A stretch of DNA of 64,000 bases from Escherichia coli (lineage in GTDB: Bacteria; Pseudomonadota; Gammaproteobacteria; Enterobacterales; Enterobacteriaceae): the NCBI RefSeq assembly GCF_013122565.1, contig NZ_CP053258.1; one strand, given 5' to 3'. The position numbers are program-made. Below, piece after piece: positions 22,801 to 31,800 of this stretch (position 1 is its first letter; the number at the start of each line of letters is the position of its first letter).

Positions 22801-25800
22801 CCCTCAATATGGTTCTCGCTACACGCTTACATATATTTAAGTATAAAATATAAACATATAAACTAAAAACATTAAACACCAAAAAAAACAAAAAAAACAT
22901 ATACATATAAATTTAAAATCTTTTAAAGTGTAAGAAATCAGAATAAAAACCTGATCTTATAAAGATGGAAACTATAATATTCCAAATTAAAAAATAAAGG
23001 AGTAAATTAACAAACAAGCTAAACAAACCATCAAATTCCGCATAATACACAGCATGGAAATAGATATTGAATGAGCATGCCAATATTGGTATGCGAATGC
23101 TGGCGGTAGCAGTAAAAAAGAAAAATGGTGGGGCGGATGTAGCAGGAGAGCCATATAAAATGCAAATAAAAGACTACCAATATGATAATCAAGGAAAGAT
23201 CAGTAATGATTCCAAATATTCATATTCATATTCATATGCTGACATGATGTCGACTTCTCCTTTTTTCAACCCATTTTTGATACGAAAGCATTGTATTATT
23301 GGTGCTGAAATCTTATGCAGAGTTCAAACGCAAAACAGTTATATATTAAATCAGTTTCATAGCATGAGATTTAAAGACTGAAATTTGGATGTTTATGCTG
23401 TACAGTCGCTATCTAAAACTAGAGAGCATTTATGTGAAAATGAATATCATCTTCCTTAAGGTTTTACTATTACATTAAATGTTACGAGTTCACAAGTTTG
23501 CTCTCCTTTAATAAGAAAGATAGTGCTTTATTTTAACAAAAGATTCACCTCAGGCATCTTCATTATATTTGAGCCTATGGTAGAAAATTCAGTGAGCAGC
23601 ACGTATACAAGGTTATATCTTCACCGGATCATTGGCTGTAAGTGGTATCTTATTTTAGAGTCAGAAAAAAGACATTGGTACGATAAAGGGCTTTCTTATA
23701 AACATTGATACAATTTCACCTGCAAAAATTATTATGCTAAGTTTCATCGAACGCCTTGTCTCTCGTTCTTTCTCTTTTTTCAAAGACGGCAATCCTGTCT
23801 TACACAGAAGATTAAATCTTCATGACAAAAATACAAGTTATTTCAAGAGAGGTGCATATCAGAAAATAATGATTGAGAGTGATAGTTAAGCATATTTCAT
23901 CACTAAGGCGATGAATAATATCTGTGGAGATATTGTTAAATAGTTAACTTTTTAGCAATAATTATTGTTTCATATACTTTAAGGATAATGTTATGAATAA
24001 ATCTAATATTGTATTAACTCTTGTAGCAACCGTTGGAATTATCAGTACAGCCCACTCGGCTTCAACCGGTACAATCACATTTAATGGCGAATTGACTGCT
24101 AATACCTGTGATGCGGTTGTAGATAACCAGAATGCAGATGCAATAGTTACGTTACCTACTGTTGGTATTAATCAACTGGAAAATCAGGGTCAGACTGCTG
24201 GTCGTACAGGCTTTAATATCGCACTGACTAACTGTGCCAGTGCGCTGACAGCTGCTTCCGCTTTCTTTGCCGCTGGCCCCAGTGTGGATTTTGCAAGTGG
24301 TCACCTGAAAAACACGGATGAATCTGATGGTGGAGCAAAGCTAGTCAGCCTGCAGTTACGCGATGAGGCTCCCGGTGCAGGTAGTAAAATTATCCAAGCC
24401 GGTAATGGTAATCAGGCTACAAGTACTCAATATGTAGATGTAATTTCGGGTACTGCAAACCTGCCTTACTCAGTTGAATATTTTGCAGATGGTACGGCCA
24501 CCGCGGGTAATGTAACCAGTAATGTAGTCTATTTCATCCAGTACAAATAATCACACAAAGATAATATATCAATAACGTATTTAAGGAGGGCCCCCCCTCC
24601 TTATTAAGAGGTCTCAAAATGTTTACCAGATGTTATTTAAACCACAACCTGATGAAATCTTTACCTCTGCTATTTGTGACTTTATTCAGCCTACATTCAG
24701 AAGCCAGTATAGTTATTACGGGAACCCGGGTAATCTATCCCGCCGGGGAACATTCCGTCAGCGTGAAACTGAATAACAATGGCAAGCTTCCGGTGTTGAT
24801 TCAAAGTTGGGTGGATAATGGTGACCCAGATAAAAAACCAGATGATTCTCAGGCCCCATTTATTATTACCCCCCCGATTAACAGAGTTGATCCCGGAAAA
24901 GGACAGACCTTAAGAGTTACCTTCACTGACCTTCCATTACCCACCGATCGTGAGTCTGTCTTCTGGTTAAACGTGCTGGAAATCCCAACCAGATATGAAC
25001 CAAAATCAAATGATAATTATCTTCAGGTAGCATTTCGTACCAGGATAAAGCTTTTTTACCGACCAGAAAATTTACCAGGAAAATCTCTGGAGGCACCGAA
25101 TACACTCATCTGGAAGATTTCTAGTGGGCAACTGATGGCATCAAATAATTCGGCATGGAACGTATCTCTTTCCAGTATTTCAGTTTGCGGAAAGAAAGTC
25201 GAGGGAAAAATGGTCAGCCCAAGAGGATCTGAAATTTTCCCACTAAAAGTATCCCCGGGTATGCGGGTAAGCTTTGAAGCTGTCAATGACTACGGAGCAA
25301 TCATGAAGAAAACAGCAACCGTACAGTAATAAATATACATAAAGGTTAATACCGTGGAAAACAGAATATTTAAACCACACATTATTGCCGTAACGATAGC
25401 AGGACTGTATGGCTTTTCTGTTCATGCTGTCTTTGCGAATGATACTATAAACTCGTCGGACAGCCCGGTCGCTCAAGAAAATACGAAGAAATCCCTACCA
25501 TCCCCAACGTCTGAGCGTATTGAATTTGCCACTGAGGTACTCGAACTAAAAAACAAACAATCAATTGATTTAAGTCGTTTTTCTTCCGGAAACTATTCTC
25601 TACCAGGAAAATATCAGGCAGGCATATGGATTAATGATAGTTTTCTTGGAAACCAAGACATTGAAGTCAAAGGGCATACAGATGGTTCTTCTTATGTCTG
25701 TATAACGCCTGATCTGCTGAAGATACTTCCATTATCTTGGGACAGATTAAGTGAGTATAAATTCAATCAGGCCCCCGAATCTACCAACTGTTCTGATGTT

Positions 25801-28800: not shown

Positions 28801-31800
28801 ATCCAGTTACTTGATTGCCCTACTAATTATTTTGGTTATACTGATAAGGGTACTTTTATCTCTGACTCAGGTGTAATTACAGGCACCCCTCCATTAACAC
28901 CGAACAAATATACTATTGAATTATCACCTAAATACGGAGTTAAAGATGCTGCTACAGGTATAATTAATATTAACAGTGGCACAGGCATGGCATCGGGAGT
29001 CGGAATTCAGGTAGCCTCAGGCAATAGTATAACAAACACACCGGCCAAATTTAATATCGCAACTGAGATGACCCCGGAGTCTAATACTTCTCAAAAAATT
29101 CCATTGGTTGCACGATTGATACAAACAGACACTAACGTTACACCAGGGAAAATAGAGTCAGTTATAACTTTTACAATTAATTATTATTAACACAACTGTT
29201 TCATGATGGGAGGTGGTAAATATGAACCATTTCAAATATAAAAGAGTGTCAGCTCTAACATAGATGCGCGATATATGTTTAGGAACAGCACCACATAAAT
29301 TTTTATGCAATGCAGACATTGCCCCACTTTATCGTCTGTTACGTTGGCAAATTTTTATAGGAATTGTTTCGGTTATGCTGCGTATTATCTTGTACAAAAA
29401 ATCTCACACTGGCAATGCCATGTCTTTTCTAGCGGGGATTTCCTCGTGGTGATTTAGGATTTGCTTTATCAGGATTTTTTACAAGGCATTTCATTACCAA
29501 CAGGCCACAAAATACAATACAAATAACAAATTGTGAATATAAAGTATTAAAGAAGCATCTATTCCCAAGGAGATAAAATGTCACTCATTTGTTCTATTAA
29601 ATTCATTCAACATGAATTTAATGCATATATTTTAGATAACAACTACGCCTTCTCTGACGGTGAGGTTCTGATGGTAGATAGTGCTGTTAATTTATATTTT
29701 AAACCTTATGAACGATATTTCAAAGAAATCAAACTCAATGAAAAAATCATCAAAAGATACCTACAATACACTAACATTCAGATAGAGACAATGTCTGCTC
29801 CTACAAAGTTTTTACGTGTTTCTAATGTACCGACTGGATTGCTTAATGAAATGATTATTTATCTCAACTCGGAAGAAAATAATCATCATGATTTCTCTGA
29901 AGTTTTGCTTTTATCTTGCCTATCTATTTTTTCCGAATGCAAAGGTTTCATTACATTGCTTAATAACGGTGTATTATCCGTTTCCGGAAAAGTGAGGAAC
30001 ATTGTCAATATGAAGTTATCCCATTCATGGAAACTAAAAGACATTTGTGACTGCCTGTGCATGAGTGAAAGCTTGCTGAAGAAAAAACTAAAACAAGAGC
30101 AAACAACATTCTCACAGATTCTTTTAGATGCCAGAATGCAGCACGCTAATAAATTGATGCGGATAGAAGGCTCAGTCAATAAAATTGCCGAACAATGTGG
30201 TTATGCCAGTACATCTTATTTTATTTATACTTTCCGAAATTATTTCGGCAACAGTCCAAAGAGATTTTCTAAGGAAAAAGGTATCCACCCGCATAGCCAT
30301 CTTGCAGACTTCAGCGGTATTCTGCAGACGGATGCGAACGCTGGGTTCATGCCCGCAACAAGAACCATGGTGTGCATGTCCGCACGCCGTCGGCGCTGAC
30401 GGATGAAGCACTGAAAGGGGTCTGTGGGATGTATACCAACGAGTCGGAAATAAAGGGAATGCCGGCGGAGTAACGTCTTGCTGAATGTCAGCAGAAAGCG
30501 AAACTACTGCTGAAATCCTTGGAAAGCTGACTGCGTGAAAAGATGAAAACCCTGCCACGACACTCAGAACTGGCGAAAGCGCTCGTGTACTGGCGATACG
30601 AATGGAATGACGAGGCTGCCTGTCAGTCACAGGGAGCTTTTGGCACAAAATCAACGGAAAGGCCGCCAGCACTGGAATTAAGTTGTACTGTCCCCGTACT
30701 GGCAAGCCATACCCGGAACAACCTCACCGCAAACTGCGCCCGGGAGCAACCATTACAGCCTCTGCACTGGATTTGCAGCCCCGGCATCTTTCGGCGGTGC
30801 CTCCTGCCGTTCTCCATCTCTGCTGTATACCCCAGCACTTCTGAGCCTCATAATCTTCGTCACACATCACACAAAACCACTTTCTCATTTCACCATATAA
30901 TCCGGAACCGTCATGCCCTGCAGATGCAAACGACGGGCCTCTTTCTCTACCATGTCAGGCCTGGTGCATCGCAGGAGGATTTTCTCAGCGACAGTTATCT
31001 GGTCATGCTCAAATCACGGCGGTTGTCCGTCATTGCCCCGCTTAAGTGTTAATGGATAACCACAGAACACGTAGCACATAACGTCCTGGCGGCTGTGCTT
31101 CGCGGCTTCTTTCGCTGTTACAAAATGACCTTTGCTGTCATTTGTCATATAACAGTTCAGAATTCATATATTTCCTCCTGAGTTGTCCGGGGAATACTGC
31201 ATCCTCCGGTCTGGCAGTGTAGGCAGTACCGCTCCCCATAATAATCGTGGCGACATTGTCTGCAGTGCCAGCTGGCTTTACGCACCACGGGTAAGGCATT
31301 CGGTATCAATTGCTGTAAGCGTTTAATCAACTGTACTTTACTGCGTTCCGGTCTGACATGAGGGCACTCGTGACCATGCTCAGTCAGCCATTTGACGGTG
31401 TGTTCAAATCAGCGACGTTCAGTATCGTATTCCGGATGGTATTTGAGTGCACTAGCGCAAGGATGGCCGGTGTAGCGATCGCAAGGTGCGGTCTGTGCAG
31501 TACGGGCATCAATCAGACGATCATTCCCTTTGAAAGCGATAAAGTTTTTTGCGTATATAGTGTAGTTCCTTACCGCCAGACGACACGCAGACGTTAGCCG
31601 TCCCGCTACGGGTAGCGTGGTCAGGGTGTGAATGGCGGATTAGTGAAGTGTTATCAAAAGGAGGTAAAGTAAGCCGGTGCAGTCTGTCGTTATTGTTGCG
31701 TGGTTGTCACACTATGGGGCACTGACGTAAAAAATAATCGACATCTGCGTCGTGGCCCCACGTCAGTGAATTCGGGGGACGTTGATACAGCCAGACTGCT

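Follow-up and report, generated by a model that had tools for sequence, protein, structure and literature searches.

A rare island-borne gamma-type chaperone-usher operon of Escherichia coli with intercistronic hairpins and decayed upstream regulators

Introduction

To which fimbrial family does the four-gene locus at positions 23993-29190 of a sequenced Escherichia coli genome belong, and what might be the function of the inverted repeat that lies behind its pilin gene? The locus resides in a stretch of 64,000 nucleotides (nt) from contig NZ_CP053258.1 (NCBI RefSeq assembly GCF_013122565.1), hereafter the window, and an original prediction, made from the sequence alone, had described it as a complete chaperone-usher operon with an attenuator-like palindrome and a plausible silenced promoter upstream. 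The computational analysis reported here leaves little doubt about what the cluster is and how it is built. We consider it probable that it represents the structural core of an accessory gamma-type chaperone-usher cluster on a CP4-like genomic island, with hairpins that act on the RNA.

Results

The four open reading frames (ORFs) of the operon, all on the forward strand, were found at exactly the predicted positions: a major pilin of 185 amino acids (aa) (23993-24550; Pfam FimA, E 2e-17, and Fimbrial), a PapD-type periplasmic chaperone of 236 aa (24619-25329; PapD_N, E 6e-46, and PapD_C, E 2e-11), an outer-membrane usher of 867 aa that starts with GTG (25354-27957; PapC_N, E 3e-38, Usher, E 1e-160, and PapC_C, E 1e-9) and a two-domain tip adhesin of 382 aa (28042-29190). 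The structural operon is complete, and the lengths of all four genes agree with those in related operons, eight of which we retrieved through their adhesin or usher proteins (usher identity 50-68%; where one has to be singled out, its locus number, such as L012, is given). The signal peptides foreseen for the four products were also recognizable by a heuristic reading of the sequence that revealed a basic n-region, a hydrophobic core and putative Sec cleavage sites at the four N-termini (AHS/A, SEA/S, VFA/N and SIA/A). A check for frameshifts in the window and in the three other E. coli genomes that share the operon (PapRG-06-5, A30 and JNE23-001) returned no internal stops and no frameshifts.

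The first three products of the operon each carry the hallmarks of their class. The pilin, which is 56-63% identical to the pilins of the related operons, has the fimbrial immunoglobulin (Ig)-like domains, a cysteine pair (C39 and C81) and a C-terminal tyrosine motif (VVYFIQYK at the very C-terminus) that are expected for a major pilin. Among solved structures its nearest match is chain 10ss_a (E 4e-24), followed by FimA (E 5e-10). PDB entry 10ss contains 14 copies of this 179-aa chain a under the molecule name 'Ferrous iron transporter B', and since the alignment with the window pilin spans the full length, signal peptide included, chain a would appear to be a fimbrial pilin whose PDB name looks wrong. 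In the chaperone both PapD Ig-like domains are present along with a conserved Arg/Lys pair, R37 (R8 of the mature protein) and K144, which is invariant among the relatives and which we take to be equivalent to R8 and K112 of PapD. The chaperone gene is preceded by the ribosome-binding site (RBS) AAGAGG at 24607-24612, 6 nt before the start at 24619. RefSeq places the chaperone start differently in three genomes, at the equivalents of 24619, 24652 and 24763 (236, 225 and 188 aa), and only the first of these annotated starts follows a good RBS (AAGAGG). We considered whether the differing starts signal a defect of the chaperone gene and rejected this idea, as the copies differ by substitutions only, without any frameshift, leaving an inconsistency of annotation. 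For the usher, N-terminal, barrel/plug and C-terminal domains were all found by Pfam, relatives align from residue 1 in support of its coordinates, and RefSeq gives the identical start and end.

To type the fimbria, as the original prediction had proposed, we aligned the usher with eight ushers of E. coli K-12, the nearest of which is HtrE of the Yad system (36.6% identity), followed by SfmD (33.4%), FimD (33.0%), YraJ (32.4%), ElfC (32.2%), YehB (29.8%), YbgQ (27.7%) and YhcD (25.0%). This typing succeeded at the level of the gamma type, with HtrE as nearest K-12 usher, and fell short of an exact sub-clade. In a neighbor-joining tree the window usher and seven fetched relatives formed a single group with 100% bootstrap support, and comparison with solved structures gave E 5e-127 for FimD and E 2e-67 for PapC. 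Among NCBIfam models, NF007337 scored best for the usher (648 bits, versus at most 470 for the others) and NF007398 for the chaperone (238 bits), both scores lying below the respective cutoffs of 830 and 285; presumably these are the HtrE-type and the EcpD/YadV-type models. The closest database relatives of the usher, five clusters that are 62-68% identical to it, come without exception from contigs of metagenomes or read archives, and beyond them lies a large family at about 50% identity in Serratia (especially S. fonticola), Pantoea, Erwinia, Enterobacter and others. Judged by these alignments, the usher is of the gamma type, nearer to FimD than to PapC, and belongs to an uncharacterised family that is nearest to Yad without being a Yad orthologue. 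The usher classification scheme is described in PMC3559732.

The last gene of the operon has the two-domain layout typical of the tip adhesins of classical chaperone-usher fimbriae, with a receptor-binding domain at residues ~30-213 and a pilin domain at residues ~214-382; the Pfam Fimbrial domain is confined to residues 211-381 of 382. The receptor-binding part is predicted to adopt a GafD/UclD/MrkD-like lectin fold at 9-20% sequence identity to such structures, and no sequence-level match to solved adhesin lectin domains was obtained. On the strength of this predicted fold and the domain layout, the assignment as tip adhesin is well supported. Sequence relatives of the adhesin are scarce, with 5 matches among 5.8 billion proteins and, in a set of 1.84 billion, 11 cluster representatives, and its 90%-identity cluster comprises solely E. 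coli (~180 contigs), annotated just as "fimbrial protein". At 31-33% identity to its counterparts, versus 50-68% for the usher, the adhesin is far more diverged, and the usher and adhesin genes, which overlap in L005 and L012, are separated by an 84-nt spacer in the window. Both features are consistent with a possible exchange of the adhesin cassette. A region of S. fonticola CP013913 (L007, 8001-12586) harbors three adhesin paralogues of 385, 394 and 389 aa, the first two in tandem and the third separated from the second by a gene for a GerE-type regulator, which suggests that adhesins may diversify inside this fimbrial family.

What of the palindrome? The original prediction had placed it between the pilin stop codon (24548-24550) and the chaperone RBS, and it does lie there. 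The 20-mer concerned, AAGGAGGGCCCCCCCTCCTT (24583-24602), which occurs once in the window, is not the perfect palindrome that it had been called: its reverse complement is AAGGAGGGGGGGCCCTCCTT, which differs from it, and the 20-mer matched one strand only. It is instead an interrupted inverted repeat with 8-base pair (bp) arms, or 9 bp when the flanking T and A are included, around a 4-nt CCCC spacer. Transcribed, it would yield hairpin 1 (24582-24603, forward strand) with a 9-bp stem (UAAGGAGGG/CCCUCCUUA), the loop CCCC, a folding energy of -13.3 kcal/mol and the tail UUAAGAGG. A dispersed repeat of the repetitive extragenic palindromic (REP) kind was considered for AAGGAGGGCCCCCCCTCCTT and rejected, the window holding one copy even when up to 2 mismatches are allowed. 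The C-run that forms the loop and part of the 3' arm (24590-24596) comprises seven C in the window and PapRG-06-5 and eight in A30 and JNE23-001, making the loop 4 or 5 nt long with whole-spacer folds of -14.5 and -14.4 kcal/mol; this difference may reflect either true slippage or a homopolymer sequencing error.

Perfect hairpins with a stem of at least 9 bp are not scarce in this DNA. The window holds ~17 distinct ones (26 entries, several of them counted under more than one setting of stem and loop) compared to ~2.3 in block shuffles, and hairpin 1 is therefore not rare in itself, so that the weight falls on its position and its conservation. That such a position is usual, as the original prediction had stated, was borne out by a hairpin behind the pilin gene in all eight related operons and in six of the seven K-12 fimbrial operons examined. 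In the eight relatives a G-rich/C-rich hairpin of 7-10 bp resides in the 53-72-nt spacer between the pilin and chaperone genes, with varying sequences and loops, and the RNAalifold consensus of this spacer hairpin contains 7 pairs, 3 of them with compensatory changes. The K-12 hairpins that follow the major pilin gene have energies of -11 kcal/mol or stronger.

If the hairpin is a conserved feature of these spacers, does it terminate transcription? According to the attenuator hypothesis, hairpin 1 is a Rho-independent terminator at which a fixed fraction of transcripts ends after the pilin gene, read-through feeding the downstream genes. The stem directly behind the pilin stop is GC-rich, as in an intrinsic terminator (9 bp, 5 of them G-C pairs), and when its GGAGGG/CCCUCC core alone is counted as stem the tail becomes UUAUUAAG, with four U among the first five. 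Moreover, a real T-run follows the hairpin in L005, in L006 and between yadN and yadV of K-12. Conversely, the terminator scan makes no call at hairpin 1, whose stem is followed by UUAUU in the window, and the hairpin is retained in L007, L010 and L011 with no U-tract at all, the corresponding run being reduced to 2-3 T in L012 and L013. K-12 presents a similarly mixed picture, with a T-run after the post-pilin hairpins of yadN-yadV and yraH-yraI and none in elfA-elfD. That L007, L010 and L011 keep the hairpin without a U-tract suggests that the stem-loop, and not termination, is the conserved property. We thus retain from the original prediction a hairpin after the pilin gene and regard its role as an attenuator as doubtful, partial termination being one among several roles conceivable for it.

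Stem-loops of the pap and CFA/I operons confer selective RNA processing and stabilisation (as listed in PMC4423207). Because the hairpin recurs in 8/8 relatives and 6/7 K-12 operons, it is plausible that hairpin 1 likewise raises pilin output over that of the assembly proteins.

The arms of the stem raise the further possibility that hairpin 1 tunes translation, either by hindering the loading of ribosomes on the chaperone gene or by uncoupling it from translation of the pilin. The 5' arm is a perfect Shine-Dalgarno (SD) sequence, UAAGGAGG, paired with a copy of the 3'-tail of 16S rRNA, CCUCCUUA, the hairpin ends 4 nt before the SD of the chaperone gene, GGAGG-bearing 5' arms occur in five of nine family members, and in each relative read the 3' end of the hairpin lies upstream of the chaperone start (~15 nt upstream in the window). 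Yet the sequestered SD has no start codon within usable reach, the chaperone SD itself (AAGAGG) is unpaired in the predicted fold, and G-rich arms resemble an SD through their composition alone. As three relatives have plain G-runs in place of GGAGG, the SD/anti-SD likeness of the arms is probably a by-product of stems built from G- and C-runs, and control of translation by the hairpin appears improbable to us.

Less probable still is that the 3' untranslated region (UTR) of the pilin gene is processed into a regulatory small RNA (sRNA), in the manner of FimR2, a CsrA-binding 3'-UTR sRNA that RNase E generates from the fimA-fimI spacer (PMC9723502). The K-12 annotation has FimR2 in this equivalent spacer, and in the window an AU-rich single-stranded segment (24551-24581) precedes a stable hairpin with a GGA motif. 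This motif is located in the stem instead of the loop, the region has no sequence similarity to FimR2, and an Rfam scan of the whole window at gathering thresholds returned no family within the operon.

A second intercistronic hairpin, absent from the original prediction, precedes the adhesin gene (27984-28023, forward strand). Its 9-bp stem (ACGGGTAAT/ATTACCCGT) encloses a 15-nt loop (stem-loop 27984-28016) and is followed by CC and the run TTTTT (28019-28023), 19 nt before the adhesin ATG. Hairpin 2 is more terminator-like than hairpin 1, and its 15-nt loop exceeds the limits of the terminator scan. Its stem has the same sequence in all four E. coli copies, and L006, L007 and L013, the relatives with a spacer between the usher and adhesin genes, also have hairpins there. 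Taking the two elements together, we rate a role at the RNA level for both hairpins as an even bet on what these sequences reveal.

The AT-rich DNA upstream of the pilin gene (22.8-23.9 kb) had been proposed as a plausible silenced promoter. The high AT content is real: the GC fraction is 0.30 over 22830-23992, whereas the operon has 0.43 and the window as a whole 0.465. The low complexity claimed for the region pertains to ~22830-22930, with its A-runs, and to an (ATATTC)3 repeat at 23216-23233; the remainder is decayed coding sequence. The 22.8-23.9 kb stretch is thus not simply a silenced promoter, the region consisting largely of pseudogene remnants of regulators that adjoin a remnant of an insertion sequence (IS) of the IS66 family.

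The first of these remnants (23232-23645, forward strand), detected by tblastn with the EAL proteins of the relatives, derives from a gene for an EAL-domain protein of the cyclic di-GMP phosphodiesterase type. It is 35% identical over 145 aa to residues 13-157 of the L012 protein EAL259 (E 5e-23; Pfam EAL in this homologue, E 1e-28) and 33% identical to L010_o253. It contains in-frame stops at 23379-23381 and 23457-23459, its C-terminal ~100 residues are deleted, and a 104-aa 'hypothetical protein' annotated at 23067-23381 is merely the front end of this broken gene. The (ATATTC)n repeat, which has three units in the window, two in PapRG-06-5 and a single one in both A30 and JNE23-001, encodes YSYSYS within the broken EAL remnant, and its variation is therefore probably inconsequential.

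The second remnant (23770-23922, forward strand), likewise found by tblastn with sequences of the relatives, corresponds to the C-terminus of a regulator of ~200 aa (38% identity over 52 aa to residues 156-207 of L005_o223, E 2e-9, and 44% over 32 aa to L012_o195). Its N-terminal ~155 residues are gone, a stop is located at 23887-23889 and ~650 nt have been lost between the two remnants; the three other genomes all carry one more A than the window, directly behind position 23781. Pfam and NCBIfam searches yielded nothing significant for this regulator. A profile of the ~200-aa family gave weak and consistent matches to helix-turn-helix (HTH) proteins of the LuxR type (RcsB, FixJ, ComA and SsrB; E 0.07-0.3), by which the regulator is probably of the LuxR/FixJ HTH type.

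Several relatives retain these genes intact. The regulator gene (~195-233 aa) lies directly 5' of the pilin gene in L005, L010, L011 and L012, and two of these relatives, L010 and L012, also have an EAL gene that is read in the direction of the fimbrial genes. In L013 the place before the pilin gene is taken by a more distant ORF of 210 aa, with no significant pairwise match. The intact homologues have GC fractions of 0.34-0.38, versus 0.49-0.50 in their ushers, and because they are AT-rich themselves, the low GC content is native to the regulator genes.

This leaves room for a promoter in the 104 nt preceding the pilin ATG. A consensus scan identified a weak candidate sigma-70 promoter, TTGTTA-18-AATAAT (9/12 matches; 23933-23962, forward strand), which ends 31 nt before the ATG and is enclosed by an imperfect palindrome (23931-23960). 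The relatives do not share this site, and when the ~110-140 nt preceding the pilin ATG were aligned for six family members, conservation was confined to the RBS. H-NS represses yad and many island-borne fimbriae (PMC13245861), and AT-rich DNA of the kind expected at H-NS-silenced promoters does lie upstream of the operon; from its AT content and the Yad precedent, silencing of the remaining promoter by H-NS is plausible. An invertible promoter switch in the style of fim or ucl was sought in 22600-24100 and rejected, only short imperfect inverted repeats, such as AT-rich DNA is expected to contain, and no recombinase gene being found in the vicinity.

The control region extends further upstream to two genes on the reverse strand that were absent from the original prediction and that the window retains intact: a winged-helix CadC/ToxR-like regulator of 290 aa (20649-21521; Pfam Trans_reg_C, E 7e-12, and a weak CadC match) and, downstream of it, a 162-aa partner ORF (20168-20656) with homologues at the same position in the relatives. 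The regulator is 42% and 37% identical to the regulators at the same position in L012 and L011 (E 2e-75 and 4e-65) and 27% to that of S. fonticola, and its sequence features a hydrophobic stretch, FMLFFLVLIISFSYCYFYAL, after the DNA-binding domain. The partner is 36% identical to L012_o162 (E 4e-32) and 30% to L011_o166, with no significant result from Pfam and NCBIfam searches. In L011 and L012 a gene of 162-166 aa and a Trans_reg_C regulator of 285-297 aa occupy the strand opposite to the fimbrial genes. This comparison of sequences shows that the ancestral cluster was larger and consisted of two divergent arms, with the genes for the ToxR-like regulator and then the 162-aa protein on one side and EAL, ~200-aa regulator, pilin, chaperone, usher and adhesin genes, in this order, on the other.

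In the window the ToxR-like regulator is separated from the fimbrial side by the IS66-family remnant (tnpB and transposase fragments, forward strand, GC ~0.5), whose approximate bounds, 21840-22830, were drawn from the RefSeq annotation of PapRG-06-5 and the step in GC. A 60-nt piece of it (~22128-22187) matches by megablast the tnpB of IS66 copies in 1,584 genomes, the remainder being unmatched to common copies. On the far side of the operon lies a ydeO-like gene of the AraC family (29578-30297, forward strand; NCBIfam YdeO, 442 bits at a cutoff of 348, covering model positions 1-240 of 253) that is truncated near residue 240/253 by a second IS66 remnant (~30240-30604), into which its ORF continues; RefSeq annotates a partial pseudogene here, with an IS66 fragment behind it. 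No ydeO-like gene occurs downstream of the fimbrial clusters in the relatives L005-L013. In K-12 ydeO also adjoins a fimbrial operon (ydeQRST/F9). L012 has a gene for a Hha-family protein (H-NS co-modulator) directly after its adhesin gene (8757-8960), and a search for a Hha-like remnant downstream of the window adhesin gave no match.

The IS66 remnants thus flank the fimbrial genes on both sides, and the whole lies on a CP4-like island, as judged from the RefSeq annotation of the identical region, with CbtA/YeeU toxin-antitoxin genes, an antirestriction gene, YfjI, a degraded integrase and many pseudogenes. The island adjoins a tRNA-Ser(GGA) gene (10956-11043), which we take to be serX, the sizes and order of the ORFs to its left fitting csg, ycdXYZ and ghrA. 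It spans ~32 kb from there to a 328-aa ORF at its far end that is presumably ycdU. An integrase-like ORF (41160-42251, reverse strand) lies at the end away from the tRNA gene, beside a strong match to the Hfq-binding sRNA family STnc490 (43010-43133, 141 bits), and it may be this sRNA gene, rather than serX, that serves as the attachment site of the island. The strongest hairpin of the window is found elsewhere, at a perfect 19-bp inverted repeat (CTCCCGGCTACACTGGCTACG and its complement, 39580-39621) right after an ORF that ends at 39561.

Among 5,426 complete E. coli genomes, three have the operon (99.4-99.7% identity), and they stem from two baboon isolates and one human isolate. A search of plasmids yielded no close copy and only distant usher homology (65-74% over short pieces), and no specific name was found for the operon, which RefSeq labels with the generic "fimbrial protein". 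Such rarity, together with the regulator pseudogenes, the IS66 remnants on both flanks and the many further island genes that are pseudogenes, is what would be expected if the structural operon were an intact-looking relic, silent in every condition and decaying, with its hairpins as leftovers. The variable codons in the structural genes of the four copies, 18 non-synonymous and 14 synonymous, point in the same direction, this ratio being only mildly under neutral expectation. By contrast, neither stops nor frameshifts interrupt the four genes (5.0 kb of coding sequence) in any of the four genomes, which are 0.3-0.6% apart, both the gene for the ToxR-like regulator and that for its partner are intact, and a promoter-like site and a good RBS persist. 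We therefore view decay of the whole operon as an unlikely explanation, one that we rank level with the attenuator hypothesis.

Discussion

On the basis of these comparisons we favor an account in which the window carries the structural core of an accessory gamma-type fimbrial cluster whose hairpins act on its RNA. An IS66 remnant occupies the divergent control region, and what is left of the EAL and ~200-aa regulator genes is stop-containing fragments. Hairpin 1 would act as a barrier at the RNA 3'-end or as a stabiliser, and at most as a leaky terminator, with the outcome that pilin message would exceed that for chaperone, usher and adhesin. Hairpin 2, with its T-run, could lower adhesin expression further, in keeping with one adhesin per fibre. 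Given the decay of its regulators and the AT-rich DNA that precedes it, the operon is likely to be cryptic, or expressed at a low level, under laboratory conditions, like most accessory E. coli fimbriae.

Several points weigh against this account. First, its functional steps are all ones that we infer. Second, hairpin 1 lacks the U-tract of an intrinsic terminator (at least 5 U in 8) and is not called by the terminator scan, so that any termination there may be negligible; its 101-nt fold is modestly better than those of shuffled sequences (z -2.1; 7/200), and the covariation among the relatives is weak, as all stems pair G-runs with C-runs and could reflect common descent. Third, the reference set for usher typing comprised the eight K-12 ushers and left out the F17/Ucl, Mrk, Sta and Stk ushers, and the position of the usher group as sister to HtrE among the K-12 references has only 68% support in the tree. 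Fourth, the LuxR-type assignment of the ~200-aa regulator draws on matches below the significance threshold. Finally, the 18:14 codon ratio indicates at most mild purifying selection and has low power.

A bolder interpretation would make the operon the E. coli member of an uncharacterised fimbrial family with a receptor-binding domain that has hardly any sequence relatives, a dedicated control module (a membrane-anchored ToxR-like regulator and its partner protein, an EAL gene and a small HTH regulator) and a conserved SD/anti-SD-like hairpin behind the pilin gene. The adhesin would recognize a new host receptor of relevance to colonisation of the primate gut, and the hairpin region would do more in regulation than set stoichiometry, for instance as a FimR2-like sRNA or as a ribosome decoy. 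The idea of primate-gut colonisation stems from the baboon origin of two of the three complete genomes, and we consider this interpretation a long shot, though a somewhat shorter one than translational control by the hairpin.

The account that we favor, a structural core with RNA-acting hairpins, extends the E. coli repertoire by one fimbrial type that is sporadic and island-borne, of a known kind that holds no surprise for fimbria specialists. Its practical value is modest, residing in a candidate adhesin of rare lineages that include baboon isolates. The locus also exemplifies an adhesin cluster, acquired by horizontal transfer, that has lost regulators of its own and retained the structural genes, and the post-pilin hairpin across the usher family offers a natural series for how stem-loops set subunit ratios.

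How does the operon compare with known fimbrial systems? With pap, CFA/I and fim it shares a stable stem-loop immediately 3' of the gene for the most needed subunit (PMC4423207; for fimA-fimI, PMC9723502), although the window hairpin has no sequence similarity to theirs. Compared to the regulatory genes mrkHIJ of Klebsiella type 3 fimbriae and fimYZ-STM0551 of Salmonella, the EAL and HTH genes of the window cluster lie upstream of the pilin gene and are pseudogenes here, and no equivalent of the PilZ-type MrkH was seen. The pilin-chaperone-usher-adhesin order is that of F17 and Ucl (f17ADCG and uclABCD), an order that is not diagnostic since it is common to yeh, yra and others, and the lectin domain resembles theirs in predicted fold at 9-10% identity, the F17C and UclC ushers lying outside the comparison.

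The likeness to Yad goes further, with 36.6% identity of the usher to HtrE, 42% of the chaperone to YadV and 27% of the pilin to YadN, the same pilin-chaperone-usher beginning of the gene order and a hairpin after the pilin gene. Unlike Yad, the window operon has no further pilin genes equivalent to the minor pilins YadM, YadL and YadK, its adhesin aligns just to the pilin fold of YadL and not to YadC, and its usher and chaperone remain below the NCBIfam cutoffs (648 versus 830 and 238 versus 285). Moreover, the operon resides on an island, whereas Yad occupies the core panC-folK locus, and the regulators of its cluster are the ToxR-like, EAL and ~200-aa HTH proteins.

It is among the uncharacterised clusters of Serratia and other Enterobacterales (for example the 1.85 Mb region of S. 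fonticola CP013913 and the metagenome contigs L005 and L010-L013) that the operon finds its own family. L010 and L012, the closest relatives, keep the EAL gene and L005 and L010-L012 the ~200-aa regulator gene, whereas the window copies are broken; L010 and L011 have a second chaperone gene, and S. fonticola has its tandem adhesin paralogues. These differences notwithstanding, the window operon shares with this family 50-68% identity in the usher, 56-63% in the pilin, 50-62% in the chaperone and 31-33% in the adhesin, as well as the gene order, the post-pilin hairpin and the upstream ToxR-like regulator.

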